DNA of 61,326 bases from Gemmatimonadales bacterium. GTDB lineage: Bacteria; Gemmatimonadota; Gemmatimonadetes; Gemmatimonadales; GWC2-71-9. The DNA is taken from assembly GCA_041613315.1 (NCBI GenBank), contig JBFJHJ010000016.1:1-61326 (forward strand). Direction: 5' to 3'. This document shows positions 15,458 through 51,475 of the stretch, piece after piece (position 1 is the first letter of the stretch; each line of letters opens with the position of its first letter). The notes below the pieces were generated by a model. That model made no database searches. It was given only the letters and a program-made list of their open reading frames with translations, and was not told the origin of the DNA. The position numbers were made by a program, and so were the translations under genes.

Positions 15458-15539
15458 GGTTGCACGCTCCTGCACCGCTTGCGCTCCGATCCGCTCGAGG
15501 ACCAGGGGCTCCGGTGCCGCGCGGAGGCCGGCTGCCGGG

Positions 15540-16022
15540 TCATCCCGTCGGCGATCCCGTTCGCCCGGAGCCGCGCCGGCTTCGCGCGGCGGGTCGCCCC
15601 GGAGGCGCGATCATCACCGGCCGCTCGTCGAATCCGGTGCGGTCGTCCCGGAGCCGCCAGGCGCGCACCTCGTCCGCCCGACCCACCCGGACCGACACGA
15701 TAAGGTACTCGAACGAGGGCCACGCGAGCTCCCGGTCGTACGGCGAGGGGTGCGGGGGCACGTCGGGATGCGAGTGGTAGACGCCCACGACGTCCAGCCC
15801 GCGGGCGGCGGCCGCCCGAGTGGCGTCGCGGACGTCCGCAGGCCCGATCAGGTAGCGCCGGGCTGCCGCGCCGTCGGCCGCGCGCCGATTCGCCACGCCG
15901 AGCTGGTCCACGACCCGCACCTCGCCGTCCACGACGCCCAGGAGGAGCCCACATGCCTCGTCGGGGTATGCCGCTTCGAGGCGGCGCCGAATGGCGTCCA
16001 GCACCGAGGCCGGGAGGATCAT
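15540..16022 (-). CDS. mec: JAB/MPN+ (Mov34, M67) metallopeptidase, Mec-like
   Basis: YPDEACGLLLG and YHSHPDVPPHPSPYD JAMM motif; ATG overlaps cysM stop. Confidence 0.9.
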   Translation of the reverse strand: MILPASVLDAIRRRLEAAYPDEACGLLLGVVDGEVRVVDQLGVANRRAADGAAARRYLIGPADVRDATRAAAARGLDVVGVYHSHPDVPPHPSPYDRELAWPSFEYLIVSVRVGRADEVRAWRLRDDRTGFDERPVMIAPPGRPAARSRRGSGRTGSPTG

Positions 16023-17026
16023 CGCACGGCTCCGCCCTCGAGCCGCCGGCGCTCGCTCAGGTAGCGCTGGCCCCCGTCCGGGGCGATGACGACGATCACG
16101 AGTTCGGCGCGGTCCGCCGGCGTCGCCCGCGCCACCAGGGCCTCCGCGGCGGCGATCGCGGCGCCCGCCGACCATCCGACGAAGAGCCCACGACGTGCCA
16201 CCCGGCGCACCACCTGCTCTGCGAGCTCGGTGGCCACGAACACGGTCTCGTCGATCCGGCTGGCGTCGTAGATCGCCGGCACGAGCGCCGACGCCAGGTG
16301 CTTCAGCCCTTCGAGCCCGTGGAGCGGGCCGTCGGGCTGCACGGCGACGAGCCGGACCGCGGCGTTGCGCTCCGTGAGATAGCGACCCGCCCCCATCAGC
16401 GTGCCGCTCGTGCCCACGCCCGCCACCAAGTGGGTGACGCGCCCGTCGGTGCCGCGCCAGACTTCGGGTCCGGTAGTCGCGTAGTGCGCGGCGGGGTTCG
16501 CGGGATTGGAGTACTGATCCGCATACCAATAGCGGTCGGGATGGGCGGCCGCCAACGCCTGCGCGTGGCGGATCGCTCCGTCGCTTCCCTCGAGTGGATC
16601 GGTCTCGATCAGCTCGGCCCCATACGCGGCGAGCATGGCCTTCCGCTCGGCGGACGCGTTGGCCGGCACGCACACGGTAATCCCGATCCCGGCCGCGGCC
16701 CCGAGCATGGCGTACGCGACGGCCGTGTTCCCGCTCGACGCGTCGAGCAGGCGCCGGGCCGGCAGCATCCCCGCGCGAAGGCCGGCCCGAAGAATCTCCC
16801 GACCCGGCCGATCCTTGACGGAGCCGCCCGGGTTGAGCCACTCCGCTTTAACCAGGATGGCCGAGCCCTCGGCCGACAGTTCCAGCGGCACCAAGGGCGT
16901 CTGGCCCACGAGCGCCCACAGGGCGGGTTCCCCGACAGGTGGCCGGCCCGGGCTCACGGGGGCAGGTCGCGCCGACCGCCCAGTGGTCCCGTCCGGACGG
17001 CGATGCACCAGGTTGTCAGCCATCAT
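16019..17026 (-). CDS. cysM: PLP-dependent cysteine synthase (CysM-like)
   Basis: GQTPLV, NPGGSVKDR (PLP Lys), SSGNT, GVGTSGT, DGGQRYLS; exact start uncertain (17023-17035). Confidence 0.9.
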   Translation of the reverse strand: MMADNLVHRRPDGTTGRSARPAPVSPGRPPVGEPALWALVGQTPLVPLELSAEGSAILVKAEWLNPGGSVKDRPGREILRAGLRAGMLPARRLLDASSGNTAVAYAMLGAAAGIGITVCVPANASAERKAMLAAYGAELIETDPLEGSDGAIRHAQALAAAHPDRYWYADQYSNPANPAAHYATTGPEVWRGTDGRVTHLVAGVGTSGTLMGAGRYLTERNAAVRLVAVQPDGPLHGLEGLKHLASALVPAIYDASRIDETVFVATELAEQVVRRVARRGLFVGWSAGAAIAAAEALVARATPADRAELVIVVIAPDGGQRYLSERRRLEGGAVR

Positions 17027-17033
17027 AGGTCGC

Positions 17034-17058
17034 ATACCCGAGTAAAGTTATCGGGTTT
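17034..17058. promoter_or_regulatory. IscR type-1-like palindromic operator upstream of cysM
   Basis: ATACCCGAGTAAAGTTATCGGGTTT: ACCCGA-N9-TCGGGT inverted repeat in an AT-rich gap; 20/25 matches by eye to ATASYYGACTRWWWYAGTCRRSTAT. Confidence 0.65.
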
Positions 17059-17097
17059 CTCTGCAAATAAAAACCTGGGCGACCGGCTGCCGGTTCC

Positions 17098-17550
17098 TCA
17101 CGCCTTGGTGGCGATCGTGACCAGCTCTTCCACCCGCCCTTCCTGGTGCGAGAGATCGGCCAGGGAGAAACTCTCCAGCACTTCGTCGATCTTCTGATGG
17201 AGCGCGCGCCAAACGGGACGGATGCTACACGCGGTGGTGGGCCGACATCGGTCCGGGTCCACCTGATGCACGTCGCAGTTCACCTGAAACGTGTGGTCTT
17301 CGGCCGCCGCGATCACATCCTTGACGGTGATGGACGCCGGGTCCTTGGCGAGGTAGTAGCCGCCCTTCGCACCGCGGACACTCGCCACCAGACCGGCGCG
17401 ACGGAGCTTGAGCAGAATCTGTTCGACGTAATCCCCGGGGAGCCCTTCACTCTCGGCTAAATCGCGGGCGGGCACGGGGTCCGTCCCGCCGCGTTTGGCC
17501 AGGTGCACCGAGACGATCAGGCCGTACTCTGCCCAGGTGGTGACGCGCAT
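17098..17550 (-). CDS. Rrf2 family transcriptional regulator (IscR/CymR-like, 3 Cys)
   Basis: MRVTTWAEYG, YVEQILLKLRRAGLVASVRGAKGGYYLA, C-x9-C-x5-C. Confidence 0.93.
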   Translation of the reverse strand: MRVTTWAEYGLIVSVHLAKRGGTDPVPARDLAESEGLPGDYVEQILLKLRRAGLVASVRGAKGGYYLAKDPASITVKDVIAAAEDHTFQVNCDVHQVDPDRCRPTTACSIRPVWRALHQKIDEVLESFSLADLSHQEGRVEELVTIATKA

Positions 17551-17681: not shown

Positions 17682-19091
17682 ATGACGACGACGGAACCAG
17701 GGGTCCGAATGGAACGCGACAGCATGGGCACCGTCGAGGTCCCGGCCGACCGGTATTGGGGTGCGCAGACCGCCCGCTCCCTCAGGTATTTCGCCATCGG
17801 GCGGGACCGCATGCCGCTCGAGGTGATTCGCGCGTTTGGGTTCCTCAAGAAGGCCGCCGCGCTCACGAATCGGGAGCTTCAGACGCTGGACGAGCGGCGC
17901 GCCGCGCTCATGGTGCAGGCCGCCGACGAGGTGATCACGGGAGCGCTCGACGACCACTTTCCGCTGCACGTCTGGCAGACGGGGAGCGGCACGCAGACGA
18001 ACATGAACGTCAACGAGGTGATCGCCAATCGGGCGATCGAGTTGGCCGGCGGCGCGATGGGCAGCAAGGACCCGATCCATCCCAACGACCACGTGAACCT
18101 CTCGCAGTCGTCGAACGACACGTATCCCACCGCGATGCACGTGGCCGGCGCGCAGCTGCTCACGGAGCGCCTTCTCCCCGCGGTGGCCGCGCTCCGCGAT
18201 GCGCTCGCGGCCAAACAGGAGGAATTCCGTGACATCGTGAAGATCGGCCGGACCCACCTGCAGGATGCCGTGCCGCTCACACTCGGGCAGGAGTTCTCAG
18301 GCTACGTCGCGCAGCTGGACGACGACGTGGCCCGCATCCAGGGCGCGTTGCCCGGCCTCTATCGCCTCGCGATCGGCGGGACGGCGGTGGGCACCGGCCT
18401 CAACGCGCCGCCGGCGTTCGCCGAGCGGTGCGCGGCGCACATCGCGGAGTTGACGGGCCTTCCGTTCACCTCGGCACCCAACAAGTTCGCCGAGCTGGCG
18501 GCCCACGATGCCATGGTCATGGCCCACGGGACGCTTCGGGTGCTGGCCTGCTCGCTCATGAAGATCGCCAACGACATCCGTTGGGCGGGGTCGGGGCCGC
18601 GTTCGGGGCTGGGCGAGCTCCTCCTGCCCGCCAACGAGCCGGGCTCCTCAATCATGCCCGGCAAAGTCAATCCGACGCAGTGCGAGGCGCTGACGATGGT
18701 GGCCGTGCAGGTGTTGGGGAACGACACGGCGATCGGCTTCGCGGGCGCCCAGGGCAATTTTGAGCTGAACGTCTTCAAGCCGGTGATGGCGTTCAATCTC
18801 ATCAACTCCGCCACTCTGCTCGCCGACGCCTGTGACTCGTTCCGGAAGCACCTCGTCGTCGGACTCGCGGCGAACGAAGCACGGATCGCAGAGCTCGTGG
18901 CCAACTCGCTGATGCTGGTGACGGCCCTGACCCCCAAGATCGGCTACGACAAAGCCGCCGAGATCGCCAAGAAGGCGGACACCGAGGGCACCACGCTGAA
19001 GGCGGCCGCGCTGGCACTCGGGTACCTGAGCGAGCGAGAATTCGACGCCACCGTCAGGCCGCGGGACATGGCGTTCCCGCACGGGGCGTAG
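17682..19091 (+). CDS. fumC: Class II fumarate hydratase
   Basis: [28 protein letters not shown]. Confidence 0.97.
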
Positions 19092-19148
19092 CCCCGGGCG
19101 CCGAGGATCCTCGCCGTCCCCGCGAAAGCGGTCGCGCCCCGAAGCGTC

Positions 19149-20552
19149 ATGACGCGTCCGAGCGCGGCCATCGTGATCGGCGGCGGGGTCGCCGGGCTGG
19201 CGGCGGCGCACCGCCTCGCCGAAACGCTCGGCCCCGACCGCCTGATCTTGCTCGAGGCCCGCCGGCGCCTCGGCGGCAAGATCGTGACCGAGCGGCAGGA
19301 CGGTTTCGTGGTCGAGGGCGGTCCCGACTGCTTCCTGGCGGCGAAGCCGGCGGCCATCGAGCTCCGCCGGCTGCTCCGGCTGGACGAGCGCCTCCAGGAC
19401 GCCAATCCCCACCGCTGGCCGAGCTTCGTCCGACGCCACGGACGGCTGCATCGGCTTCCGACGGGCGTCACCGGACTCGTCCCGTCACGCCTCGGCGCCT
19501 TACTGACGACGCGACTGCTCTCCGTGCGAGGCCGGCTCCGCGCGGGATTCGAGCCCCTCCTGCCGCGAGGCACCGCCCACGGCGATGAGACCATCGCAGG
19601 CTTCGTCACGCGCCGCTTCGGGCGTGAGGCCTACGAGTGGCTCGTCGAGCCGATCCTCGGCGGCATCCATGCAGGCGACGGCAGCCAGCTCAGCCTCGCC
19701 GCCACGTTCCCGCAACTGGCCGAGATGGAGCGGGCCCACGGGAGCGTGCTGCGACCGCTGGTGCGCCGGCGCGGCGTGGGCGCCGCCGGCGCTTCGCTCA
19801 TGGCGCCGTGCGCCGGCATGGCCGAGCTGGTCGAGGCCCTGGCCACCGCCCTGCCGCCGGAGACGGTGCGCTGCGGGACGGCGGCGAGGGCGGTGCGCCG
19901 CGAGGGGAAGGGCTACGAGGTCACACTGGCGACTGGCGTGCGCCTCCACGCGCAGGCCGTGATCCTGGCCACGCCGGCCCATGTCACGGCCGCGCTGAGC
20001 GCCGGCCTCGACCCGACCCTCGCCGCCCTCCTCCGCACGATCCCGTTCGTCTCGACCGCGACCGTGTCGCTCGCGTACGCGACGGACCGAGTGCCGCACC
20101 CGCTCCGGGGCACGGGGTACGTTTCCCCGCGGGCCGAGGGCGGACCGGTGGTGGCATGCAGTTGGACCACCAGCAAGTTCGCGAATCGCGCACCCGACGG
20201 TGTGACCCTGTTACGGGTGCTGCTGGGGCGCGCCGGTCGCGACGAGGTCGTGGATCGGACGGATGACGATGTGCTCACGCTCGCGCGCGAGGAGGTCCGC
20301 GAGACGCTCGGCATCGGCGTGGCGCCCCTGCGCCACTGGATCTACCGGTGGCCTCGCGGCCTGCCGCAGTACACCCAGGGCCACGTCGGGCGGGTGGCCC
20401 GCATCGAGGACCGTCTGGCGACGCACCCGGGGTTGTGGCTCGTGGGGGCGTCGTACCACGGCGTGGGCGTCCCGGACTGCATGGCGTCGGGGTGGCGAGC
20501 CGCCGACCGGCTCACGGCGTTCGTGGGCGCCCCCCGGCCGGGGTCGGGCTGA
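19149..20552 (+). CDS. hemG: Protoporphyrinogen/coproporphyrinogen oxidase (HemY-type)
   Basis: GGGVAGL FAD motif, EGGPDCF, GIHAGD, PQYTQGH, GVGVPDC. Confidence 0.9.
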   Translation: MTRPSAAIVIGGGVAGLAAAHRLAETLGPDRLILLEARRRLGGKIVTERQDGFVVEGGPDCFLAAKPAAIELRRLLRLDERLQDANPHRWPSFVRRHGRLHRLPTGVTGLVPSRLGALLTTRLLSVRGRLRAGFEPLLPRGTAHGDETIAGFVTRRFGREAYEWLVEPILGGIHAGDGSQLSLAATFPQLAEMERAHGSVLRPLVRRRGVGAAGASLMAPCAGMAELVEALATALPPETVRCGTAARAVRREGKGYEVTLATGVRLHAQAVILATPAHVTAALSAGLDPTLAALLRTIPFVSTATVSLAYATDRVPHPLRGTGYVSPRAEGGPVVACSWTTSKFANRAPDGVTLLRVLLGRAGRDEVVDRTDDDVLTLAREEVRETLGIGVAPLRHWIYRWPRGLPQYTQGHVGRVARIEDRLATHPGLWLVGASYHGVGVPDCMASGWRAADRLTAFVGAPRPGSG

Positions 20553-20556
20553 GGGA

Positions 20557-21675
20557 TCAGGCGATGGGCGCCGGCTCGGGCTCGTACGCGCAGAACGGAT
20601 CTGAGCCCAGGTAGTCGCCCGTCATGGCGTACGCCCGGGCCCGGGAGCCGCCGCACGCCCAGCGGAATGCGCAGCGTCCGCACTTGCCGTGCAGGAGATC
20701 GGCGTTGCGGAGCTCCCGAAGCGCCGGGGCGTTCCGGTAGATGTCGGAGAGCCGTCGGTCCCGCACGTTGCCGAGCAGCGGGAATGGCAGGAACCCAGCC
20801 GGATGTACGTCGCCGCGGTGCGACACGAAGATCACGCCGTTGCCGTCCCGGATGCCGAACCCCATGCGCTTCGCCGCGCGGGCGATCTCGGTCGGCGGCA
20901 TCCCCTCAGCGAGGCGACGTTGGATCCAGTAGCGCCGGTAGTGCGGCGCCTCGACCGTCCCGACGTGAAACGGCGCGTCCCGCCCGATCTCCTCCACCCA
21001 CGCAAACAGTGTCTCCACCTCCTGCGCGCTGGGAATCCCGAGCTCCGTGCCGCGCCCCACCGGGACCAGAAGGAACAGGCTCCAGCGCCGGACCGGGGGA
21101 CACGCGCCCTCGCGCAGCAGACGGAAGAGTGCCGGCAGATGGGGGAGCGTTTCCGCCGTCACGGTGGTGTTCACCTGCACCGGGATGTGGAACTCCCGTG
21201 CCCACTCGAGCGCCTGGCGCGAATGGCCGAACGTTCCCGGGACGCGGCGAAACGCGTCGTGTACCTCAGCGGAGGGCCCGTCGAGGCTGATCCCCATAGC
21301 CGCGATGCCCAGCGCCCGGAACCGACGGACGGCATCCCGGGTCAGGGTCGGTGTCGTGCTCGGCGTGATGGACACCGGCAGTTGGATCGAGCGCGCGTAC
21401 GCGACGAGATCAAACACGTCGTCGCGTTTCATCGGGTCGCCGCCGGTGAGGATGAGCATGCTGCCCATGCCCTTGATGTCGCGCATCAAGGCCGCGGCTT
21501 CTGCCGTCGTCAGCTCCGCCGGATCGCGATGCGGGATCGCGTCGGCCCGGCAGTGCCGGCACGCCAAGTCGCACGCGATGGTGGTTTCCCAGTACACGTT
21601 GCGGGGCGCCCGGCCATAGACGAATCCAACGTGGGGCGAACCCACCGCCTCCGCGTTCAGCGACATGCTCGTCAC
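20557..21675 (-). CDS. Radical SAM/SPASM protein, AhbD/NirJ-like
   Basis: WETTIACDLACRHCRA, LTGGDP; SPASM GKCGRCAFRWACGGSRARAY...DPFC. Confidence 0.85.
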   Translation of the reverse strand: MTSMSLNAEAVGSPHVGFVYGRAPRNVYWETTIACDLACRHCRADAIPHRDPAELTTAEAAALMRDIKGMGSMLILTGGDPMKRDDVFDLVAYARSIQLPVSITPSTTPTLTRDAVRRFRALGIAAMGISLDGPSAEVHDAFRRVPGTFGHSRQALEWAREFHIPVQVNTTVTAETLPHLPALFRLLREGACPPVRRWSLFLLVPVGRGTELGIPSAQEVETLFAWVEEIGRDAPFHVGTVEAPHYRRYWIQRRLAEGMPPTEIARAAKRMGFGIRDGNGVIFVSHRGDVHPAGFLPFPLLGNVRDRRLSDIYRNAPALRELRNADLLHGKCGRCAFRWACGGSRARAYAMTGDYLGSDPFCAYEPEPAPIA

Positions 21676-21842
21676 CTCCCTGTCCCGCGCCGGAGAGCAG
21701 CCCCGAGGCGGTCAGTGCGAGACTACGCGGCCTCGCATGAGATGCGAAAAAAGGGAGTCTGAACGGACCTTCACCGGGCGCGGTGCGCGGCTCTGCTAGC
21801 CGCGGCGGCGGACGCGGCGTGCCATCGAGGTTCCTCGCTCGC

Positions 21843-22403
21843 CTAGCGGGTGACCTCCACGCGCAGCGCGTCGTTGAAGCGGTTGAAATAGCTGAACAGG
21901 CCTGCTACCAGCGCGATCTCGACGATCGCGCCCTCGTCCCAATGCCGGGCCAGCTCGGCATACACCTCGTCGGTCACGGCGTGTCCGCTGTCGGCCATGC
22001 TCTCCGCGAACCGCAGCGCGGCGAGCCAGTTCGGGCCCATACCGTCGAACGACGCCTCGACCTCGCGGCCTTCCTCCGGCACCTCGATCCGCACCGCGGC
22101 GACCCACCCGTCTCCGGCACCCAGCCGCCTTGCCAAGGCGGTGTGGGACGCGAGTCAGTAACGGCACTGGTTGATCGCCGAGACCCGGACCGCGATCAGC
22201 TCCTTGAGCACGGGCGGCACCTCTCCCTCGGTCATGACGGTCCGAAAATGCGCCAGCATCGTGGTGAGATGCGCGGGCCGCGCCGCGACGGTACGGAACA
22301 TGTTGGGGATGTTGCCGCGCTCTTTGCGGTACGTCTCGAAGATCGTGCGGACTTCGGGCGTCACCTCGCCGGGATCGCGCGGCCGGATTCGTGGGTTGCT
22401 CAT
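21843..22403 (-). CDS. AhpD/carboxymuconolactone decarboxylase family peroxidase, predicted selenoprotein (CxxU, TGA at 22155-22157)
   Basis: ORFs 22155..22571 and 21843..22136 are in one frame: KELIAVRVSAINQCRY-TGA-LASHTALARRLG...FSYFNRFNDAL; TGA at the second Cys of CxxC. Confidence 0.85.
22120..22147 (-). promoter_or_regulatory. Putative bacterial SECIS hairpin of the AhpD-like gene
   Basis: CCCA-CA-CCGCCTT-GGC-AAGGCGG-C-TGGG; G-starting apical loop about 20 nt after UGA. Confidence 0.65.
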
Positions 22404-22416
22404 GGGCTCTCGTGGA

Positions 22417-22674
22417 TCAGTCGGTACAGTCGCCGAGCGGGTACACGAACCCGCAGTTCGGACAGGGATGCTTGCAGCCGGCGGGCGCAGGTTCGACCTC
22501 GAACCCGCAGCGGAGGCACCGGGGGACTTCCGTGCTGTTGGACGTGAGCAGTACGCCGTGAGCCGAGACAAACGTCACGGCGCCGGGCGCCGACGATCCC
22601 GTCCGGTGCTCGGGGTGCGACTGTGCACCGCCCGGACCAACAGCCGGTTTGCCGCTCACCGCATCATCCCGCAA
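22417..22674 (-). CDS. Small Cys-rich zinc-ribbon protein (start uncertain; GTG at 22578 possible)
   Basis: CLRCGFEVEPAPAGCKHPCPNCGFVYPLGDCTD*; fills the gap between the MBL and AhpD genes. Confidence 0.6.
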   Translation of the reverse strand: MRDDAVSGKPAVGPGGAQSHPEHRTGSSAPGAVTFVSAHGVLLTSNSTEVPRCLRCGFEVEPAPAGCKHPCPNCGFVYPLGDCTD

Positions 22675-23314
22675 AGCGATACGCCCCCGTCAGAAACGGG
22701 TTTGTCGCGCGCTCCCGACCGATCGTGGTCTCGGGGCCGTGCCCCGGGTACACCACCGTGTCGTCGGGGAGGCTCAGGAGACGATCGCGGATGCTCGCGA
22801 GCAGCGTCGCCGTGTCGCCTCCGGGCAGATCCGTGCGGCCGATGGAACCCGCGAACAACGCGTCACCGACGAACGCCACCCCGTGCCCCACCAGGGCCAC
22901 CCCGCCGGGGCTGTGTCCCGGTACGTGCCGCACCGCGAAGCTCAGCGCGCCGAGGCGCAGCGTGTCGCCCTCCGCCAACGCCCGGTCGGGTGGGGGCGGG
23001 GGCTCCGCCCGGAGCCCCAACCAGGTTCCCTGCTCCCCGATGGCGTCGTAGAGCGAGCGGTCGTCGGGGTGCAAGTACACGGGCACGCCGGTTGCTTCCG
23101 TCACGCGGCGCACGCCGAGGATGTGGTCCAGATGGGCATGGGTGAGCCAGATCGCGCGGAGTGTCAAGCCGTCGGTCGCAAGCCGGCGGAGAAAGAGATC
23201 CGCTTCCTCACCCGGATCGATCAACGCGGCGTCCCGCGAGGCCGGGTCGGCGACGACGTAACAGTTCTCCTGAAAGGCGCCGTTGGTCAGGCAGATGACC
23301 TCAGGTCGAGGCAA
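22664..23314 (-). CDS. MBL-fold metallo-hydrolase (glyoxalase II-like, YcbL/GloC family)
   Basis: THAHLDH, PGHSPG, GDALFAGSIGRTD, YPGHG. Confidence 0.92.
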   Translation of the reverse strand: MPRPEVICLTNGAFQENCYVVADPASRDAALIDPGEEADLFLRRLATDGLTLRAIWLTHAHLDHILGVRRVTEATGVPVYLHPDDRSLYDAIGEQGTWLGLRAEPPPPPDRALAEGDTLRLGALSFAVRHVPGHSPGGVALVGHGVAFVGDALFAGSIGRTDLPGGDTATLLASIRDRLLSLPDDTVVYPGHGPETTIGRERATNPFLTGAYRFAG

Positions 23315-24305
23315 CGGCCTTGGACTCCTTCCGCTCGTCCCCCTGCGAAGTGTCCCGCCGCTCCGTCAGGTATTTCTCCGCCGCGATGGCCGCCGTGGTG
23401 GCGTCCCCCACCGCGGTGGTGATTTGCCGCGTGAGCTGCGCGCGGAGATCGCCGGCGGCGAAGAGCCCGGGGATCGAGGTCATCATATGCTGGTCGGTGA
23501 TGATGTACCCGTTCGCATCGTGGTTCACGTGCCCCTTCACGAGCCCGGTGTTCGGCAGGAAGCCGATGAAGATGAACACGCCGCCCACCGGCAGTTTCGA
23601 CGTCTCGCCGGTCGCCGTGTCCGTGAGCCGGAGGTGGGTGACGCCGGTTGCGGTGCCCTCGATCTCCTCCACGACCTTGTTCCACACGACCGCGATCTTC
23701 GGATTGCTCAAGGCGCGCTTCTGGATGATGGGGGAGGCCCGCAGCTGGTCGCGCCGGTGCACGATGTACACCTTCTCCGCGTACCGCGTCAGGTAATCGG
23801 CCTCCTCCACCGCCGCGTCACCACCACCCACCACGGCCAGCACTTCCCCCTTGAAGAACGCGCCGTCGCACACCGCGCAATACGACACACCCTTCCCCGC
23901 GTATTCCCCCTCCCCCGGCACGCCCAGCTTCCGTGGGGTGCCGCCGGCCGTGAGGATCACGACGGGCGCCCGGTACGTCGCCCCGAGCTGCGTACGCACG
24001 TCAAACGTGCCGTCCGCGCGGCGCACGATCTCGTCGGCGGTGTCCATCACGATCTCGGCGCCGAACTTCTTCGCGTGGCTCGTCATCTTCTCGGCGAGAT
24101 CCCGCCCGAGGATGCTCTCGAAACCGATGTAGTCCTCGATCACCTCGGTATTCAGGAGCTCCCCGCCGGGGACCCCCCGCTCGATCAACAGCGTGTCGAG
24201 CATCCCGCGCCCCGCATACATCGCGGCGCAGAGGCCGGCGGGGCCTCCGCCGACAACGATCACGTCGTGATTCCGCGTCGTCTTTCCGTCCGTCTTCCGT
24301 GTCAC
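23301..24305 (-). CDS. trxB: Thioredoxin-disulfide reductase
   Basis: GGGPAG, GVSYCAVCDG, GGGDAAVEEA, FAAGD...RQITTAVGD. Confidence 0.96.
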   Translation of the reverse strand: MTRKTDGKTTRNHDVIVVGGGPAGLCAAMYAGRGMLDTLLIERGVPGGELLNTEVIEDYIGFESILGRDLAEKMTSHAKKFGAEIVMDTADEIVRRADGTFDVRTQLGATYRAPVVILTAGGTPRKLGVPGEGEYAGKGVSYCAVCDGAFFKGEVLAVVGGGDAAVEEADYLTRYAEKVYIVHRRDQLRASPIIQKRALSNPKIAVVWNKVVEEIEGTATGVTHLRLTDTATGETSKLPVGGVFIFIGFLPNTGLVKGHVNHDANGYIITDQHMMTSIPGLFAAGDLRAQLTRQITTAVGDATTAAIAAEKYLTERRDTSQGDERKESKAVAST

Positions 24306-24691
24306 GTCGACCTCAGGTGCAGTGTTGGCGCCGGTCCGCCCGCCGCGAGTGCTTGCTCGAGTGACCGGCGGAACGCCACCGTTTCGAATTCCACATCCGG
24401 ACGCTGCGGACCCGACAGCTTTCCCAGCGCCGCCCCTCCAACCACGGCGACCCCGTGGCGGTTCCCTCGCTCGCGGTGAAGCAGGGCCGCCGCCGCCTGA
24501 ATCAACCCCTGGATCACCGCCGCTTCCGCTGGGTCTCTAAGGGAACGCCATATCGCTTCCAGCTCCTCGTGCGCCTCCCAGAACGCCCCGCCGTTGAACA
24601 GCGCCACCGCGCGGCGCGCATGGGCCGCCCGCTCGGGGGCCGGCAGCGGCCGGTAGCGACGCTCGGGACGCTTCTCGGGTTTCCGTAACAT
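24302..24691 (-). CDS. DUF309 family protein
   Basis: LFNGGAFWEAHEELEAIW...QGLIQAAAALLH...GN; alternative GTG start at 24739. Confidence 0.85.
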   Translation of the reverse strand: MLRKPEKRPERRYRPLPAPERAAHARRAVALFNGGAFWEAHEELEAIWRSLRDPAEAAVIQGLIQAAAALLHRERGNRHGVAVVGGAALGKLSGPQRPDVEFETVAFRRSLEQALAAGGPAPTLHLRST

Positions 24692-24750
24692 AGCGAGTCC
24701 GTGAACCGTTGTCCGTGCCTCATTGTCCGTCTCGAACACGGACCACGCCT

Positions 24751-25194
24751 CTACCCCCCGAGCGCCGCCAGCACCTCCTGCGCGCCGGGCGCGCCGCGCG
24801 TCGCGAACACCACCGTTCCATCCTGCTCGACCAACACGACGCTCCGAGCGATCCCCTTGCCATCGTCCTTCAGCGCGCCATAGGCGCGGGCGGTGACGCG
24901 GGCCGGATCACTGAGCAAGGGGAACGGCAGCTTGAGCTTCGCCGCGTAGCGAGCGTGGCTCTCAGCACCGGCAGGGTTCACCCCGAACGGCTGCACGTTC
25001 GACCCTCGGTATCGCTCGATCTCATCGCGCACGGCGGAGAGTTGGCGGTTTCACCCGGGGGTGTTGTTCCCCGGATAGAAGACAAGGAGGGCGCGCGCGT
25101 CTCCCAGCACCGCGCCCAGTCCGTAACGGCGTCCGTCGGAGGCCTCCAGGTCGAACTCCAGCGCCGGAGCGCCGACAGCGATCAGTTCGGTCAC
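24751..25194 (-). CDS. Peroxiredoxin (BCP/AhpC-TSA), predicted selenoprotein (TxxU, TGA at 25051-25053)
   Basis: GTG start overlaps PHP stop; VGAPALEFDL...VFYPGNNTPG-TGA-NRQL...LPFPLLSD...IARSVVLV in one frame; TGA at the peroxidatic Cys. Confidence 0.87.
25021..25041 (-). promoter_or_regulatory. Putative bacterial SECIS hairpin of the peroxiredoxin gene
   Basis: CTC-TC-CGC-[CGT]-GCG-c-GA-t-GAG; bulged stem, GU-containing loop about 17 nt after UGA. Confidence 0.45.
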
Positions 25195-26048
25195 GGCTCC
25201 ACCTCCGACGGGGTGCCGCGCTCCTGATGCAAGTGCTCCAGCGCGGCGAGCCACGCGGGTGGGACGGGAAGACTGCCCAGCGAGGCCCGCTCCGGTGGCC
25301 CCACCGCGCCGTCCCCGTGCCAATCGGACCCGCCCGTGAGGAGCAGGCCGAGCTGGCCGGCGGCCGCCTCGATTCGTCGCTGCCGCTCTGCGTCGTGCGA
25401 CGGATGAACGACCTCCACGGCATCCACGCCCGCGGCGGCGAGACTCGCGAGCACGGTGCGGTTCGCCCGGCCGCCCAGATGCGCCGCGGAGGATACCCCG
25501 GCCAGGCGGCGGACCAGGGCCGTTACCTCCGCGACGGCCGGCAACCGCTTCGGGACGAACGCCGGGCGCCCGCGACCGAGGTAGCGCTCGAACGCGGCCG
25601 ACACGTCGGTCACGGCGTCCCGGGCGACCAGCGCCCGCGCTACGTGGGGCCGACCGACCGCGCCGCCGTCCGCCTCGCTGAGCACCTCGTCGAGCGTGAG
25701 CCCGATCCCCGCCGCGCGGAGCCGGCGGACCATCTCGGCCGCGCGCCGACGCCGGTGGCGGCGTTGGGCCGCCAGAAACGTGTTGAGCTCGGGGGCGTCC
25801 ACGGGCAGACAGTAGGCCAGCAAGTGCATCTCCCCCCAACCCACCGCCACGCTGAACTCACAGCCCGCCACGACGCGAACGCCAGCGTCCCGTCCCACAC
25901 GTCGCGCATCCGCGACACCCTCTATCGTGTCGTGGTCCGTGAGGGCGAAGACGTCGAGGCCGGCCGCCGCCGCGCGGCGCGCGACGTCGCCGGGAGCGTA
26001 CTCGCCATCGGAGGCGGTCGAATGGACGTGGAGGTCGACGCCCGCCAC
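25191..26048 (-). CDS. PHP domain phosphoesterase (TrpH/YciV-like)
   Basis: DLHVHSTASDG, ALTDHDT, GRPHVA, TGGSDWHG. Confidence 0.92.
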   Translation of the reverse strand: MAGVDLHVHSTASDGEYAPGDVARRAAAAGLDVFALTDHDTIEGVADARRVGRDAGVRVVAGCEFSVAVGWGEMHLLAYCLPVDAPELNTFLAAQRRHRRRRAAEMVRRLRAAGIGLTLDEVLSEADGGAVGRPHVARALVARDAVTDVSAAFERYLGRGRPAFVPKRLPAVAEVTALVRRLAGVSSAAHLGGRANRTVLASLAAAGVDAVEVVHPSHDAERQRRIEAAAGQLGLLLTGGSDWHGDGAVGPPERASLGSLPVPPAWLAALEHLHQERGTPSEVEP

Positions 26049-26049
26049 G

Positions 26050-26325
26050 CTAGCGGGCCTCCCGCCCGTAGCGGGTGTCCGGACTGGTGCGCGCGGGCTG
26101 CGACTCCCGGAACAACTCGAGCAGCCGCGGCTCCGCCAGCTCGGCCAGCGCAGCGTCCCAGCGGCGGGCACCCAACGGCGAGAATCGCGTCACGCGGCGC
26201 ACCCGCTCCGGGCCCGTCCCTTTCTCGAACACGAGCCCGAATTCGTCCCGATCGTAGGCCGTGATCCGACCGGACGGATAGACGTGCCAGCGCTCGCCGT
26301 CCACCTCGATCGTGCGGCGGGCCAT
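26050..26325 (-). CDS. Hypothetical protein
   Basis: 91-aa ORF with 1-4 bp gaps to both neighbours and protein-like composition. Confidence 0.7.
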   Translation of the reverse strand: MARRTIEVDGERWHVYPSGRITAYDRDEFGLVFEKGTGPERVRRVTRFSPLGARRWDAALAELAEPRLLELFRESQPARTSPDTRYGREAR

Positions 26326-26329
26326 CGAC

Positions 26330-27733
26330 TCAGACCGCGCCTTCGGGAAACTGCTCCAGGTCTCGCTTCACGTCGGCCATGAAGCGGTCCGCGTCGGCGC
26401 CGTCCACGATGCGGTGGTCGTACGCCAGCGAGAGCATGCCCATCATCCGGATGGCGATCACGTCCTGCCCGCCGTCCAGCGTGAGCACCTTGGGCCGCTT
26501 CTCGATGGCCCCGACACCCAGAATCGCCACCTGCGGCTGGTTGATGATCGGGTCGCCCACCCAGCTGCCGAACACGCCGGGGTTGGTGATGGTGAAGGTT
26601 CCCTGTTGCACCTCGTCGGGACTCAGCTTCTTGGTGCGCGCCCGTTCGCCAAGATCCGCGATGGTCTTCGCGATTCCGAGCAGGGACAGCTCGTCCGCGT
26701 GCTTCACCACGGGGACGATAAGACCCCAGTCGAGCGCCACCGCGATGCCGATATTGATCGGCTGTCGGTAGATGATGTTGGTCCCACTCACCGATGCGTT
26801 CACCACCGGGTGCTGCCGGAGATTGTCGGCGACGACCTTCGTGATGAACGCGAGGTACGTGAGTTTCGTCCCTTGTTCCTCGTACTCGCGCTTCTTCCGG
26901 TCGCGCAACGCCGCGATCCCGCTGTAATCGACCTCGTAGTAGCTCACGACGTGGGCCGAGATCCGTCGCGACACGACCATGTGATCCGCGGTGAGCCGGC
27001 GAATGCGACTCATCGGCTCGACGCGATCGCCGGGCCACGCCTCTACCGTGGGGTGTTGGACCGCCCCAGCCGCCACGGTCCCGGCGGGAGGGGCAGCGGG
27101 GGCAGCACCTGGGCGCGCGGCGCCCGACGCGATGTAGGCGAGGATGTCCTTCTTGGTCACGCGGCCGGCATAGCCCGTGCCTTCAATGCGGTTAATGTCG
27201 ACCTGGTGCTCCGCCGCGATCTTGCGGACGAGCGGTGTGGAGCGGCGGCGCAGGCGGTCCTCTTTTGTCTCATCGGCTCCGCCCCGCCCGTCTCCGGCAG
27301 GGGCGGCAGACGCGGGAGGAGCGGCGGCGGCGGCGGCGGCAGGCGCGGCCGCCTGGGCCGCCGGGCGCTGCCGCTGGCGGCGCTCGGGCGGCGTCTCCGG
27401 CCGCCTCTCGGCTTCCTTGGTCGCCGCGGCGGGGGCTTGCTCCTCCCCTTTCTCTTTCTTCTGTGGTGCCGCTCCCACCTCCGCCGCACCTTTGTCCGTC
27501 TCGATCACGGCCACGACCGTTTGGACCTCGACCGTCTGCCCCTCCTGTACCTTGATCTCGGCGAGGATGCCGGCGGCGGGCGACGGAATTTCCGCGTCCA
27601 CTTTATCCGTCGAGATCTCGAGAATCGGCTCGTCGCGCTTGACCGAGTCGCCGACGTTCTTCAGCCACTTGGAGACGGTGCCCTCGGCAATCGATTCTCC
27701 CATCTGCGGCATGATGACGTCTACGCGGGCCAT
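26330..27733 (-). CDS. 2-oxoacid dehydrogenase E2 (dihydrolipoamide acyltransferase)
   Basis: Lipoyl MPQMGESIAEG...ISTDKVDAE; E3-binding TPLVRKIA...GRVTKKD; catalytic DHRIVDG. Confidence 0.95.
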   Translation of the reverse strand: MARVDVIMPQMGESIAEGTVSKWLKNVGDSVKRDEPILEISTDKVDAEIPSPAAGILAEIKVQEGQTVEVQTVVAVIETDKGAAEVGAAPQKKEKGEEQAPAAATKEAERRPETPPERRQRQRPAAQAAAPAAAAAAAPPASAAPAGDGRGGADETKEDRLRRRSTPLVRKIAAEHQVDINRIEGTGYAGRVTKKDILAYIASGAARPGAAPAAPPAGTVAAGAVQHPTVEAWPGDRVEPMSRIRRLTADHMVVSRRISAHVVSYYEVDYSGIAALRDRKKREYEEQGTKLTYLAFITKVVADNLRQHPVVNASVSGTNIIYRQPINIGIAVALDWGLIVPVVKHADELSLLGIAKTIADLGERARTKKLSPDEVQQGTFTITNPGVFGSWVGDPIINQPQVAILGVGAIEKRPKVLTLDGGQDVIAIRMMGMLSLAYDHRIVDGADADRFMADVKRDLEQFPEGAV

Positions 27734-27813
27734 GTATCCCACTCCTCGGTCGTCGAACAGGCGGGCGGTAAGGCGGTCGGTCTGCTCCCGGGTCGGCCAA
27801 CCGCGTGCCCGCA

Positions 27814-27837
27814 TTAGCGGCTTAGCGCCTTAGCGGC
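27814..27837. repeat. 8-bp tandem repeat x3
   Basis: TTAGCGGC TTAGCGCC TTAGCGGC in the E1beta-E2 intergenic region. Confidence 0.7.
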
Positions 27838-27854
27838 TCCAACAAACTATCTCC

Positions 27855-28835
27855 TCAGTACGCCAGCAACCACCGCGCCCCCTGAACGATGTCGTCGGTC
27901 TGCGGCAGGACGTAGTCCTCGAGGGTCGGCGCGTATGGGAGCGGGGTGTCGTGCGCCGTCACCCGCATCACCGGACCGTCCAACCACTCGAAGGCGCCTT
28001 CGTTGATCCGGGCGGTGATCTCCCCCGCCACGCCCCCGGTGCGGGTGTCCTCATGCACGATCAAGACCTTGCTGGTCTTTTTGACGGACCGAACGATGGC
28101 GTCCTCATCCATGGGGAGCAGCGTGCGCAGGTCGAGCACTTCGACCGAGGCGCCGTCCTCCCGCTCGATCTGCTCGGCGGCCTCCAGCGATTTCCACACC
28201 ATGGCCGACCAGGTGATGATCGTGAGGTCGGCGCCCTCGCGCGCCACGCGGGCCTTCCCGATGGGCGTCAGGATCTCGTCACCCTCGGGGAGCTCGTCCT
28301 TGATCCGGCGGTAGAGATACTTGTGCTCGAAGTAGATGACCGGATCCTCGTCGCGGATCGCCGCCTTGATCAGGCCCTTGGCGTCCCGCACCGTCGCAGG
28401 GCACACGAGCTTGAGCCCCGGCGTGTGGAAGAATCCCGCTTCCGGCATCTGGGAGTGGAACGGGCCGCCCCGCACGTAACCGCCCGAGGGGCCGCGCACG
28501 ACGAGTGGCGTGGCGAGGCCCGCCCGATAGCGCGCCGTGGCAACGTAGTTCGTCAGCATGTCGTACGCGCACGAGATGAAATCGATGAACTGCATCTCGG
28601 CCACCGGCCGCATGCCCATGTGGGCCGCGCCCGCCGCCGCGCCGACGATGGCCGCCTCGCTGATCGGCGTGTCGATCACGCGCGCCGGCCCGAAGCGCTC
28701 CTGGAAGCCCTCGGTGACTTTGAATGCCCCGCCGTACACCCCGATGTCCTCGCCCAGCAGGAACACGCGCTCGTCGCGCTCCATCTCTTCCCACAGTCCC
28801 TGACGGAGGGCTTCGAGGTAGGTGACTTCAGGCAT
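27855..28835 (-). CDS. 2-oxoacid dehydrogenase E1 beta subunit
   Basis: GEDIGVYGGAF, DTPISEAAI, AEMQFIDF, GGPFHSQ. Confidence 0.95.
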   Translation of the reverse strand: MPEVTYLEALRQGLWEEMERDERVFLLGEDIGVYGGAFKVTEGFQERFGPARVIDTPISEAAIVGAAAGAAHMGMRPVAEMQFIDFISCAYDMLTNYVATARYRAGLATPLVVRGPSGGYVRGGPFHSQMPEAGFFHTPGLKLVCPATVRDAKGLIKAAIRDEDPVIYFEHKYLYRRIKDELPEGDEILTPIGKARVAREGADLTIITWSAMVWKSLEAAEQIEREDGASVEVLDLRTLLPMDEDAIVRSVKKTSKVLIVHEDTRTGGVAGEITARINEGAFEWLDGPVMRVTAHDTPLPYAPTLEDYVLPQTDDIVQGARWLLAY

Positions 28836-29868
28836 CGCGCCTCCTGAACCACAGCGGCTCCGCGTGCGGCGGATCGGCGTACACGCCGCCCAGCGCCGAG
28901 TCGCCGCCGGGCAGCGGGTCCTCGATACACGCCTCCAGCGCCCCGTCCAACTCTCCGACCACCCGCCGGTCGATCGCCGCCAAGGCGGTCCTGTCGACCC
29001 ACGCTTCGTCGGTCACGCGCGTCACGTAGCGGTCAATGGGGTCCTTCGCCTCCCAGGCCGAAATCTCGGCCTTCGGCTGGTAGCGCTGATCGTCGTGTTC
29101 GGCGTGACCCTTGCGGCGGTACGTCACGCACTCGAGCAAGCTGGTGCCGCCGCCGTCCCGCGCCTGGGCGGCGAACGCCCGGGTCGCCTCATACACGGCG
29201 AACACGTCGTTGCCGTCCACCGTCTTGGCGGGAATGCCGTAGGCGTGGGCCTTGTCCGCGAGCTGCTCCACCGCGGTCTGTCTGGCGGTCGGCGTCGAGT
29301 AGGCGTAGCCGTTGTGCTCGACGATCACAACGAGCGGGAGCCGCTGCACGGCGGCGAAATTGACGCCCTCGTGGAACGCGCCGGTGCTGGTCGCGCCGTC
29401 GCCCACGTACACCAGCCCGACACGACGCTGCCCGCGCATCTTGAACGTGAGGGTGATGCCGGCCAGGACCGGAACCATATCGCCCAGGTGCGAGATCTGT
29501 CCGAGGTAGCCGAGCTTGAGGTCGTTGAAGTGGACGTTCATCTCGCGGCCCATCGTCGGGCTGGTCGCCTTCGCCATGTACTGCCGCAGGATCTCGACGG
29601 GCCTTGCGCCCATCACGAGCATGGAGCCCAAATTGCGGATGAGGGGCGACATGATGTCGCCGGCCTCGAGCGCGTACGCGCTGGCGACGCTTTCGCCCTC
29701 CTGTCCGAGGGAGCGATACAGCCCCCCGATGACCTTGCCCTGGCGGTAGAGATTGACGAGCCGCTCCTCGAGCAGCCGGGTGAGCCGCAGGTAGTAGTAG
29801 ATGTCGAGGAGCTCGTCCCGGGTGAGGCCGGCTGGAATGGGCCGAGTGGTGGCGACTCCCGATGCCAT
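28828..29868 (-). CDS. 2-oxoacid dehydrogenase E1 alpha subunit
   Basis: TPP motif GDGATSTG...VEHN, YRRKGHAEHDD. Confidence 0.95.
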   Translation of the reverse strand: MASGVATTRPIPAGLTRDELLDIYYYLRLTRLLEERLVNLYRQGKVIGGLYRSLGQEGESVASAYALEAGDIMSPLIRNLGSMLVMGARPVEILRQYMAKATSPTMGREMNVHFNDLKLGYLGQISHLGDMVPVLAGITLTFKMRGQRRVGLVYVGDGATSTGAFHEGVNFAAVQRLPLVVIVEHNGYAYSTPTARQTAVEQLADKAHAYGIPAKTVDGNDVFAVYEATRAFAAQARDGGGTSLLECVTYRRKGHAEHDDQRYQPKAEISAWEAKDPIDRYVTRVTDEAWVDRTALAAIDRRVVGELDGALEACIEDPLPGGDSALGGVYADPPHAEPLWFRRRDA

Positions 29869-29871
29869 CGG

Positions 29872-30087
29872 TCAGGGGGTGCGCCGCGCGCCGTACCCCG
29901 CGGCTTCCACCGCGGCAATCAGCTGCTCGACCGAGACGCGCGCGTCGTCGAGGTCCACCTCCGCCTCCCCGCGTTTCAGGTCCACGGACGCCCCGTACAC
30001 CCCTCGCACGTCGTTCAGCGCGCGCTCGACCGTGCTCACGCAGTGACCGCAGGTCATGCCAGTGATGGTGAGTGCAATAGACGCCAT
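29872..30087 (-). CDS. copZ: Copper chaperone (HMA domain)
   Basis: ITGMTCGHC...VEAAGY. Confidence 0.9.
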   Translation of the reverse strand: MASIALTITGMTCGHCVSTVERALNDVRGVYGASVDLKRGEAEVDLDDARVSVEQLIAAVEAAGYGARRTP

Positions 30088-30157
30088 AACGTCACGGTAC
30101 CGGGCCGCGGGTGCCGGAGCATCCCTCACCCCAACACCTGAGACTCGATCAGGTCCC

Positions 30158-30448
30158 TCAGTACGCCCCTCGCACCTCGTACTCCCGATCCACCAGCTTG
30201 TGCACCACGGCCAGGAACCGCTTCGCCACCTTGTCCGCCTCGCTCTCCCCCACCTGGTCGGTCGCGACTCGCACCAGCGTATAGTGGCCGCCCTCGGCTT
30301 CCACCGTCACGGCGATCCGTCCCACCGGTCCGGAAAAGACCCGGTGGCGCTGGCCGGCCTCCTCGGCGGCGAGGCGGGCGCCAAGAAACCGGTCCGCCTC
30401 CCGGAGCACCGCGTCGGGCCGCGCGGACGTGCGGTGAAAGTAGCGCAT
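30158..30448 (-). CDS. Hypothetical protein
   Basis: 96-aa ORF starting 3 bp after the copA stop. Confidence 0.7.
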   Translation of the reverse strand: MRYFHRTSARPDAVLREADRFLGARLAAEEAGQRHRVFSGPVGRIAVTVEAEGGHYTLVRVATDQVGESEADKVAKRFLAVVHKLVDREYEVRGAY

Positions 30449-30451
30449 GGA

Positions 30452-33004: not shown

Positions 33005-33428
33005 GCTTCGCGTGGCCCTTGCCGAGATTGGCGCGCGCACCGTCCCGGCCCACCTGGGCGACCACGCGGCCCTTCATCACGCCGCGTCCGCAGGTGAAGA
33101 GGTAGTCGCCGGGCTGCTCCGGCGTGAATTCGACGGCGGTGGTTTGGAACGCGGGGAGCTCGAGATCGATGCCGAACCGGCGGAACCGCACCCGCTCAGA
33201 GCACTCGGCCGTCTCGTCGCGGTAGAACAGCAGCCGGACCGGGCGGCCGGCCTCCACGAACACCGTATCGGGGTCGTAGCCGCCCCGCACCACGACCCGG
33301 ACTTCCTGTGCCGCATCTCGTGGCGGCAGGGGCCGCTGCACCGGCGGCCGCGGCCCCAGGAAGAACCACAGCTCGGCGCCGATCAGCACCGCGCCCAGCA
33401 CGATCACCGCAAGGTCGACTGCGGTCAC
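32997..33428 (-). CDS. Membrane-anchored cupredoxin-domain protein (CupA-like)
   Basis: N-terminal TM helix, [21 protein letters not shown]; overlaps copA start. Confidence 0.85.
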
Positions 33429-50998: not shown

Positions 50999-51475
50999 TC
51001 AGGCGAGCGCCTCCAACTGGCGCAGCAGCTCGGCGTTCTCGCGCCGGTGCCCCAGTTCCCGCTCGAGATGGGCCCACCGGACGATCCCGGCCCGGTCCAC
51101 GATGAAGTACGCCCGCTGCGAGAAGAAGAGGTCGTCGATGAGCGTGCCGTAGGTGCGGCTGACCATGCGTTTGAAATCGCTCAGGAGATCGATACCGATG
51201 CCGTGTTGCGCCTTGAAGGCGCTGAGCGTCGGGACCGAGTCGACGCTGATGCCGAGCACCGTGGCGTCCAACGCTTCGAAGCGAGAGAAGTCCGCACTGA
51301 ACGCACACAGCTCCGCCGTGCATACACTGGTGAACGCCAAGGGGAAAAAGGCCAACACCACGTTTGACCGATCGCGGTAGTCGGACAAGCTGATGTCGCG
51401 ACCGGCGGTGGACGGCAGCGTGAAGTCGTGCGCCGGCTGGCCCGGCGCGGGTGGCGCGGAGGTGCGGTCGACCAT
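50999..51475 (-). CDS. Peroxiredoxin (AhpE/BCP-like, Cys-containing)
   Basis: [35 protein letters not shown]. Confidence 0.92.

Follow-up and report, generated by a model that had tools for sequence, protein, structure and literature searches.

Predicted selenocysteine peroxiredoxin and AhpD-like selenoprotein in a conserved gene run of Gemmatimonadales

The window analysed here comprises 61,326 nucleotides of a Gemmatimonadales bacterium (assembly GCA_041613315.1, contig JBFJHJ010000016.1, positions 1 to 61,326) and contains two genes with an in-frame TGA codon, one for a peroxiredoxin (Prx, gene prx) and one for an AhpD-like protein (gene ahpD). Judging from comparison with homologues, both TGAs are very likely selenocysteine (Sec) codons, and both genes are new members of already known selenoprotein families. 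The two enzymes, a 1-Sec Prx of the BCP/PrxQ type and an AhpD-like protein with a CxxU motif, are probably optional members of an old Gemmatimonadales gene run, acting independently and recycled by general cellular reductants. Since each occurs without the other in relatives, they likely work separately and do not form a dedicated relay.

Predicted selenocysteine decoding of the two TGA codons

The Prx gene is located at 24751..25194 on the minus strand, with the TGA at 25051..25053 as predicted Sec48; the AhpD-like gene is located at 21843..22403 on the same strand, with the TGA at 22155..22157 as predicted Sec83. In both genes the TGA is aligned to the catalytic cysteine (Cys) of homologues, and all copies without TGA have a Cys codon at this position. 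Prx homologues contain TGA in 43 of 47 cases and TGC in the other four; AhpD-like homologues, counted in the best 80 of 201 AhpD-like loci from GTDB, contain TGA in 72 cases and TGC or TGT in eight. The main comparison set consists of the genomes of 40 relatives; a Prx orthologue (at least 50% identity) is present in 20 of them, 19 with TGA, and an AhpD-like orthologue in nine, all with TGA. In a phylum sample of 70 near-complete Gemmatimonadota genomes, which overlaps the set of relatives, Prx is found in 24 genomes and has the TGA in 23. The records most closely related to the AhpD-like gene come from Gemmatimonadota.

The assembly (2.63 Mb, 82.9% complete) contains selA, selB and a Sec-type selD scoring over their cut-offs, the selD itself carrying a TGA, as well as a tRNA-Sec gene on contig C24 (ARAGORN). 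selA is present in 37 of the 40 relatives and in both genomes that combine a Sec-Prx with a Cys-AhpD; it was not found in any of the three genomes searched, of the four with Cys forms of both proteins, the completeness of these genomes being unstated. Both TGAs are covered by contigs of other runs with no listed difference (one contig for the AhpD-like gene and two for prx, from one study that may include the source of the assembly). As a control, a cox3-like gene with a TGA at a conserved Trp (GLY-W-HFVD, C13:49478) was used; none of the 17 matching relatives (20 searched) has this TGA, which is private to the assembly and represents a nonsense change or an assembly error. Unlike it, the TGAs of prx and the AhpD-like gene are conserved in relatives and are therefore not due to chance. 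In these points the initial annotation, which had placed both TGAs at catalytic Cys sites, had considered two chance nonsense mutations unlikely and had presupposed sel genes, is borne out.

A selenocysteine insertion sequence (SECIS) hairpin is predicted downstream of each TGA. In the AhpD-like gene it occupies 22125..22141 (minus strand), nucleotides 17–33 from the U of UGA, and consists of a 7-bp stem with a GGC loop. Pairing is 100% in 10 aligned copies, with three compensatory pairs, and exceeds that of all 500 shuffles and all slid controls; it reaches 97.5% in 69 distinct Sec copies and 33.9% in eight Cys copies, so the hairpin decays in the latter. The predicted prx hairpin (25021..25041, minus strand) falls in a stretch of synonymous-site identity downstream of the TGA: synonymous sites of codons +4 to +8 are identical in all 43 Sec copies, while the flanking codons vary. 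Its seven pairs are kept in 37 of 37 distinct copies, and four Cys copies retain 82% pairing; as the sequence is invariant, the prx hairpin is without covariation support.

Properties of the two proteins

Prx is a 147 aa protein matching PF00578 with 94 bits. Its active site, P41-GNN-T45-PG-U48 (PxxxTxxU) together with Arg117, is intact, which points to a probable peroxidase activity; the protein contains no Cys residue. The best matches of its profile in the Protein Data Bank (PDB) are BCP/PrxQ, followed by AhpE. Its scores lie under every NCBIfam cut-off (PrxQ, the best, 56.5 against 260; NF006960, 53 against 140; TIGR03137, 28 against 272) and, lacking a resolving Cys as well, it is not a 2-Cys BCP/PrxQ or AhpC. 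Cys is absent altogether from 42 of 43 Sec copies, and a second Cys is missing from 67 of the 89 Cys homologues that are full-length and show a readable motif (eight more give no motif match and 23 are fragments). A Cys-type Prx with two extra Cys was observed in a selA-bearing genome (L015, G007:C11:19894-20322). The window itself encodes a second peroxiredoxin, of the Cys type, at 51074-51445 (minus strand), which, from its motif, we take to be AhpE-like.

The expectation that standard annotation would miss the selenoprotein proved correct for Prx: its database entry, P0036, is an 81-aa C-terminal fragment without the active site, and the entries of relatives are similar fragments of 92–101 aa. 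No curated model covers the Gemmatimonadota Sec-Prx. The correction concerns a widespread phylum, in which 23 of the 70 sampled genomes, about a third, carry a Sec-Prx cut to a fragment devoid of its active site.

The AhpD-like protein (186 aa; PF02627, 56 bits vs. 23) has the active site E68-x11-C80-R-Y-U83-x3-H87, with a CxxU motif in which the second Cys position is presumably the attacking residue, as in the mycobacterial AhpD enzyme. It passes the AhpD core model TIGR00778 (59 vs. 27.8); its best full-length model is TIGR01926 of the COG2128 type, where it scores just under the cut-off (77.6 vs. 81.8), and it fails the mycobacterial AhpD model TIGR00777 (22.1 vs. 191.95). The predicted structure (pLDDT 89) is all-helical and does not have the thioredoxin fold. 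It is similar to DR1765, SpAhpD, Bmp8 and other ‘peroxidase-related’ proteins (TM about 0.8, 18–26% identity), the identity to all solved relatives being 18–29%; the mycobacterial AhpD structure 1LW1 ranks 44th, with a TM of 0.55 and an E-value of 0.1. Two further TGA-bearing AhpD-like genes, with a CFYU motif, are found in the genome at C3:110682-111230 and C28:39994-40590, unlinked to any Prx. These paralogues pass TIGR01926 (160 and 137), and their family is present in nine of the 40 relatives, always with TGA.

Gene run and occurrence in relatives

Six open reading frames (ORFs) were confirmed, all of them on the minus strand and arranged as Prx, DUF309, trxB, metallo-β-lactamase (MBL)-fold hydrolase, Zn-finger ORF and AhpD-like gene; the gaps along PHP-Prx-DUF309-trxB-MBL-Zn finger-AhpD are -4, 11, -4, -14, 85 and 13 nt. 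The order and packing of six co-oriented genes are thus as the initial annotation had described them. They are not a self-contained unit of 3.4 kb, since the co-oriented run is far longer: it extends from at least namZ at 36775 to a radical SAM gene at 20557 and includes, upstream of prx, PHP, a 91-aa ORF, E2, E1 beta, E1 alpha, copA and ino1. Co-transcription of the selenoprotein genes with trxB is likely. A promoter and terminator scan of 21500-31000 was uninformative, with no promoter-like sites and five terminator-like sites, 2.7 being expected.

For comparison, about 16 kb around trxB were taken in the 38 relatives that have it (the trxB locus was not found in G021 and G040), and the 30 loci complete on both sides were kept for gene counts, eight being dropped at contig ends. 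The Gemmatimonadales order, kept in all three families, is E1-E2-x91-PHP-[prx]-[SDR-SDR]-[hypothetical]-[DUF309]-trxB-MBL-[Zn finger]-[LPG synthase-like, glycosyltransferase]-[ahpD]-fumarase-like-rrf2-moeZ, where SDR stands for short-chain dehydrogenase/reductase. Core genes of the 30 loci are E2 (30), MBL (29), rrf2 (28), PHP (25) and SDR2 (24); SDR1 (18), the Zn finger (16), prx (14), ahpD (7) and DUF309 (6) are patchier. The SDRs are absent from the window and its two closest relatives, and those two relatives also lack DUF309; the tight six-gene packing would then be a compacted state, reached via loss of the two SDRs and the hypothetical gene located between prx and trxB in most relatives. 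The conservation of the neighbourhood put forward initially is real in that the order is kept in Gemmatimonadales, but it covers unrelated housekeeping genes equally, and prx and ahpD occur separately. As far as gene order can tell, the ‘cluster’ is largely housekeeping synteny and the two selenoprotein genes are optional members of an old run.

The separate occurrence is seen in several samples. Eighteen of the 24 Prx genomes of the phylum sample lack this AhpD, which is present in six of the 70. Of the 53 syntenic loci anchored on AhpD (those reaching PHP or E2), seven have no prx and five no trxB. A Prx orthologue was absent genome-wide from all five genomes searched among the seven with prx-less AhpD loci (best matches of 65–96 bits, against 190–240 for orthologues), and all five keep the Sec-AhpD at the locus. 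A trxB orthologue was likewise absent from all five genomes with trxB-less loci, including the single-chromosome L076; two of them have a thioredoxin reductase (TrxR) of 41–42% identity elsewhere, and L076, L077 and L082 gave no TrxB-like match at E 1e-40, trxB being otherwise near-universal in the order. In ten non-syntenic AhpD loci, from other Gemmatimonadota, Acidobacteriota, clostridia and Ktedonobacterales, the flanks of up to 6 kb contain neither prx nor trxB; 27 neighbouring ORFs from eight of them belong to unrelated families or to none.

The distance between Prx and AhpD is 2.2–5.2 kb (median 4.7) in the 47 AhpD loci, among the best 80, that also show Prx, and 2.9 kb in the window; ahpD is inverted in two of the 47. 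For nine selenoprotein genes in 2.63 Mb, 0.08 chance pairs within 3 kb are expected, and 0.007 for this Prx within 3 kb of any of three AhpD-like genes. The proximity is mildly suggestive and is one ancestral event, not repeated evidence.

Proposed function and alternative readings

For the chemistry of the two enzymes we infer the following steps. SelB and tRNA-Sec would read UGA in both genes. Sec48 of Prx, assisted by Pro41, Thr45 and Arg117, would reduce peroxide and be converted to selenenic acid; as Prx has no resolving Cys, an external donor would have to reduce this acid, most likely thioredoxin, supplied with electrons by the housekeeping TrxB encoded nearby, or a low-molecular-weight thiol such as bacillithiol. 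In the AhpD-like protein, Sec83, activated by Glu68 and His87, would attack a hydroperoxide or disulfide and would be resolved by Cys80, yielding a selenenylsulfide reducible by dihydrolipoamide or thioredoxin. According to the available part of PMC8945050, 1-Cys BCP can be reduced by thioredoxin or by glutathione/glutaredoxin. In the assembly, bshC is located on C31, and there is a gshB-like gene that stays below the cut-off of its model. As stated initially, no thioredoxin gene was found in the window, and in the whole assembly PF00085 matches only two TlpA-like proteins, encoded on other contigs. However, trxA occurs in 40 of 40 relatives, at a distance of at least some 25 kb from trxB whenever the two share a contig, so its absence here is likely a gap of the assembly.

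Several observations weigh against independent action, or against parts of this reading. The assembly, which is 82.9% complete, yielded no thioredoxin. No selA match was found in two relatives with a TGA-Prx, G028 (95% complete) and G021 (72% complete), and four loci retain Cys versions of both Prx and AhpD. The 30 complete loci divide into seven with both genes, seven with prx only, none with ahpD only and 16 with neither; all nine AhpD genomes among the 40 relatives have Prx (naive Fisher p 0.001), as do all six in the overlapping phylum sample, both samples being unbiased, and prx is present in 46 of the 53 AhpD-anchored loci compared with a baseline of 14 in 30. The Prx-less AhpD loci may all belong to one clade. 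Finally, the E2 of the run scores over the cut-off of the actinobacterial SucB model, and it is E2 of this type that supplies AhpD.

In mycobacteria, AhpD reduces the peroxiredoxin AhpC using a lipoylated E2. A dedicated relay of the mycobacterial and corynebacterial kind would run from NADH through E3, lipoyl-E2 and Sec-AhpD (C80/U83) to the 1-Sec Prx and peroxide, AhpD supplying the resolving thiol. The initial annotation had proposed such a relay, starting from TrxB or from lipoyl-E2, and had noted the E2 gene about 1.1 kb upstream of prx; the gene is there (26330..27733, minus strand, ending at 26330; lipoyl Lys44) and passes TIGR02927 with 443 vs. 423, the E1 alpha and beta genes lying upstream of it (29868-27855) and the E3 gene lpd on another contig, C11. 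An outside resolver is needed, as 42 of 43 Sec-Prx copies have no second Cys; AhpD is nested within Prx-bearing genomes and lies at the same locus across three families. In the available text of PMC10460364, AhpD1/2 of Corynebacterium glutamicum regenerate several peroxidases via Lpd/SucB, and in that of PMC8945050 a supply from AhpD to AhpE is proposed in Deinococcus, where it is stated as not established. These points are opposed by the Prx genomes without this AhpD (18 of 24), the AhpD genomes without Prx (5 of 5 tested), the failure at TIGR00777 and the distant mycobacterial AhpD fold (rank 44, TM 0.55). E2 and E3 are general metabolic genes, and E2 is present in 30 of 30 complete loci, with or without Prx or AhpD. 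Independent-pair tests on a 38-row TrxB tree, from which G033 (TrxB only 39% identical) was left out, were not significant (median p 0.5–1), the 4–5 pairs available being too few. The two other Sec-AhpD-like genes are unlinked to any Prx, and seven of the nine carriers of their family are Prx genomes (p 0.13), so part of the AhpD nesting reflects selenoprotein-rich lineages. Two further control families have too few carriers: a PrdB-like gene occurs in four of 40 relatives, three of them with Prx, and a Trx-like/NHL selenoprotein in one of 40, there without TGA. With separate occurrence, a canonical TrxR and an AhpD outside the mycobacterial family, the relay as first proposed is not supported; a private relay through Prx and AhpD is not likely, with a modest chance left for a true one. 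If true, it would define a partner of an AhpD-like selenoprotein for the first time, but the comparative evidence makes it the less likely reading.

A rather doubtful variant is an all-selenium version of the AhpC/AhpD system, in which the Cys-free 1-Sec Prx would be resolved by the CxxU of a co-transcribed Sec-AhpD via a short-lived diselenide, the electrons coming from the lipoyl E2 encoded in the run; lineages without AhpD would fall back on thioredoxin or bacillithiol.

It is also improbable that the AhpD-like selenol acts on a non-peroxide electrophile, be it by reductive dehalogenation, as in Bmp8, or on a sulfur or reactive-metabolite substrate linked to the MBL hydrolase. The debrominase Bmp8 (activity taken from PDB titles) ranks among the best matches in both sequence and fold, and the peroxidase activity of SpAhpD is only weak according to the accessible part of bioRxiv 10.64898/2026.01.29.699744; all solved relatives, however, are only 18–29% identical. 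The MBL-fold hydrolase gene (22664..23314, minus strand; PF00753; glyoxalase II-like, TIGR03413 99.8, under the gloB cut-off of 200.8) precedes the AhpD-like gene in every one of the 53 anchored syntenic loci, even where prx and trxB are missing; as it belongs to the core of the run, being present in 29 of 30 complete loci, this adjacency says little. Mutants in ahpD-like genes are, moreover, sensitive to H2O2 in Deinococcus (PMC8945050) and pneumococcus (bioRxiv 10.64898/2026.01.29.699744), as far as the available portions of these sources go.

Direct reduction of Sec-AhpD or Sec-Prx by TrxB, in place of the missing thioredoxin, is very improbable. The trxB gene (23301..24305, minus strand; CAVC 143–146), a core gene, lies between the two selenoprotein genes, no trxA is found in this assembly, and a Deinococcus plasmid has ahpD-like genes close to additional trxR/trx genes (PMC8945050, available in part). 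Yet all 40 relatives have trxA, trxB has the same place in the 16 of 30 loci with neither selenoprotein, and AhpD is kept in five genomes without this trxB. By its score (TIGR01292, 360.9 vs. a cut-off of 343.45) and motif, TrxB is a canonical TrxR; its site, CAVC or CAIC, is the same with or without the selenoprotein genes, and the all-helical AhpD does not have the thioredoxin fold. It is hardly credible that the TGAs arose by nonsense mutation or faulty assembly, or that they are genuine stop codons of split genes: the assembly does contain the private TGA of the cox3-like gene, and two TGA-Prx genomes gave no selA match, but the two TGAs are conserved across three families and other phyla and exchange only with Cys codons, one hairpin shows covariation, and sel genes are present.

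Independent action with general reductants is therefore the reading retained as probable. The Sec/Sec, Sec/Cys and Cys/Cys pairs that occur naturally at a single locus form a test set for the recycling of a Cys-free Prx and for the role of COG2128-type AhpD-like proteins.

Neighbouring genes and further observations

The PHP-domain phosphoesterase gene (25191..26048, minus strand; PF02811) overlaps the start of prx by 4 nt and is found in 25 of 30 complete loci. DUF309 (24302..24691, minus strand, with ATG; a GTG start at 24739 is possible; PF03745, 72 bits) encodes a protein without Cys. In the 30 complete loci its six copies split 3/3 with respect to ahpD and 5/1 with respect to prx; by this distribution it is apparently a variable passenger, and the redox context initially suggested for it is not gained.

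The small ORF at 22417..22578 (minus strand, start uncertain) encodes a six-Cys Zn finger ending in YPLGDC(S/T)D; it has sub-cut-off Zn-ribbon matches and no Pfam or NCBIfam family over the cut-off. In five of the 23 loci of relatives showing the motif (L017, L018, L024, L028 and L036, one family of relatives) the Zn finger is fused to the C-terminus of the MBL hydrolase, as it is in five of 48 AhpD-anchored loci, a set overlapping the former; the Zn finger therefore goes with the hydrolase. The idea that the radical SAM enzyme encoded downstream acts on the six-Cys protein was considered and dropped, that gene being present in none of the loci of the 40 relatives.

In relative G033 (locus L043, G033:C3:278090-279031), the TrxR at the conserved trxB position is only 39% identical to the others and has a SACAVC site, which suggests a replacement of trxB in place. 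A TGA in the TrxR of G045 was rejected as a Sec codon, as it sits just upstream of the start codon.

Between ahpD and rrf2 the window contains, at 17682-21666, a TIGR04053 radical SAM gene, a hemG-like oxidase gene and an inverted fumC; relatives have a different fumarase-family gene (about 44% identical) there, on the same strand. At 14027-17547 (minus strand) there follow rrf2, a cysK/cysM-like gene, a JAB peptidase gene and a ThiS/MoeZ fusion, of which cysK and JAB are patchy among relatives; by its gene content, this set looks like sulfur-carrier cysteine biosynthesis. An unlisted ORF of about 130 aa between ino1 and copA (33040-33428, minus strand) is presumably cupredoxin-like.

Other TGA-bearing genes of the assembly include one (L147, C3:44058) in which a TlpA/Trx-like domain containing FWTYGUINC (UxxC) is joined to a long C-terminal part of repeat-like character; this is the Trx-like control with a counterpart in one of 40 relatives. 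A PrdB/GrdB-like UxxC gene (C1:22934) has the TGA in four of 40 relatives, and a gene at C10:60823, which from its motif we take to be FdhA-like, also carries a TGA. The number of selenoprotein genes is a minimum, since codon-score scans for TGA read-through were noisy and overlooked known cases, among them selD and two AhpD-like genes in the first scan.

Comparison with known systems

No paper on these genes in Gemmatimonadota was found in a literature search that covered few subscription journals, though supplementary selenoproteome tables could list them; the phylum is unmentioned in the available part of the review PMC13188914. The window's Prx shares PF00578/COG1225, PxxxTxxU, the conserved Arg and a BCP/PrxQ-like sequence with the Sec-Prx of Zhang, Gladyshev and co-workers, as described in the accessible parts of PMC1088965, PMC2398784 and PMC13188914. 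It differs from them in forming a Gemmatimonadota subfamily (PGxNTPGUNRQL) without Cys and under every NCBIfam cut-off. With the known AhpD-like selenoprotein (COG2128, TIGR01926; same sources, to the same extent) the window's protein shares CxxU, E-x11-C-x2-C-x3-H, a length of about 185 aa and an all-helical fold (TM about 0.8); it has CRYU instead of CFYU and lies just under the TIGR01926 cut-off. Its Cys relatives are DR1765 (PDB 6K40), the Dgeo_1446-type 2OYO, SpAhpD 6E8L, PA0269 and Bmp8.

A Prx-like/AhpD-like selenoprotein pair was noted once, on one read (PMC2398784, cited in the 2026 review PMC13188914; both available in part), and there, too, the two selenoprotein genes are close and on one strand. 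That pair consists of Prx-like 1 and AhpD-like 2, whereas the families here are Prx (TxxU) and the COG2128 type, and across loci their genes lie 2.2–5.2 kb apart among housekeeping genes.

The AhpC/AhpD/DlaT(SucB)/Lpd system of mycobacteria and the AhpD/Lpd/SucB system of C. glutamicum share with the window the AhpD core motif, a nearby E2 of the SucB model and an Lpd in the genome. In contrast to the mycobacterial system, the peroxidase of the window is of the 1-Sec BCP type and not a 2-Cys AhpC, its AhpD-like reductase is not of the TIGR00777 family, and the two genes are non-adjacent and lost separately.

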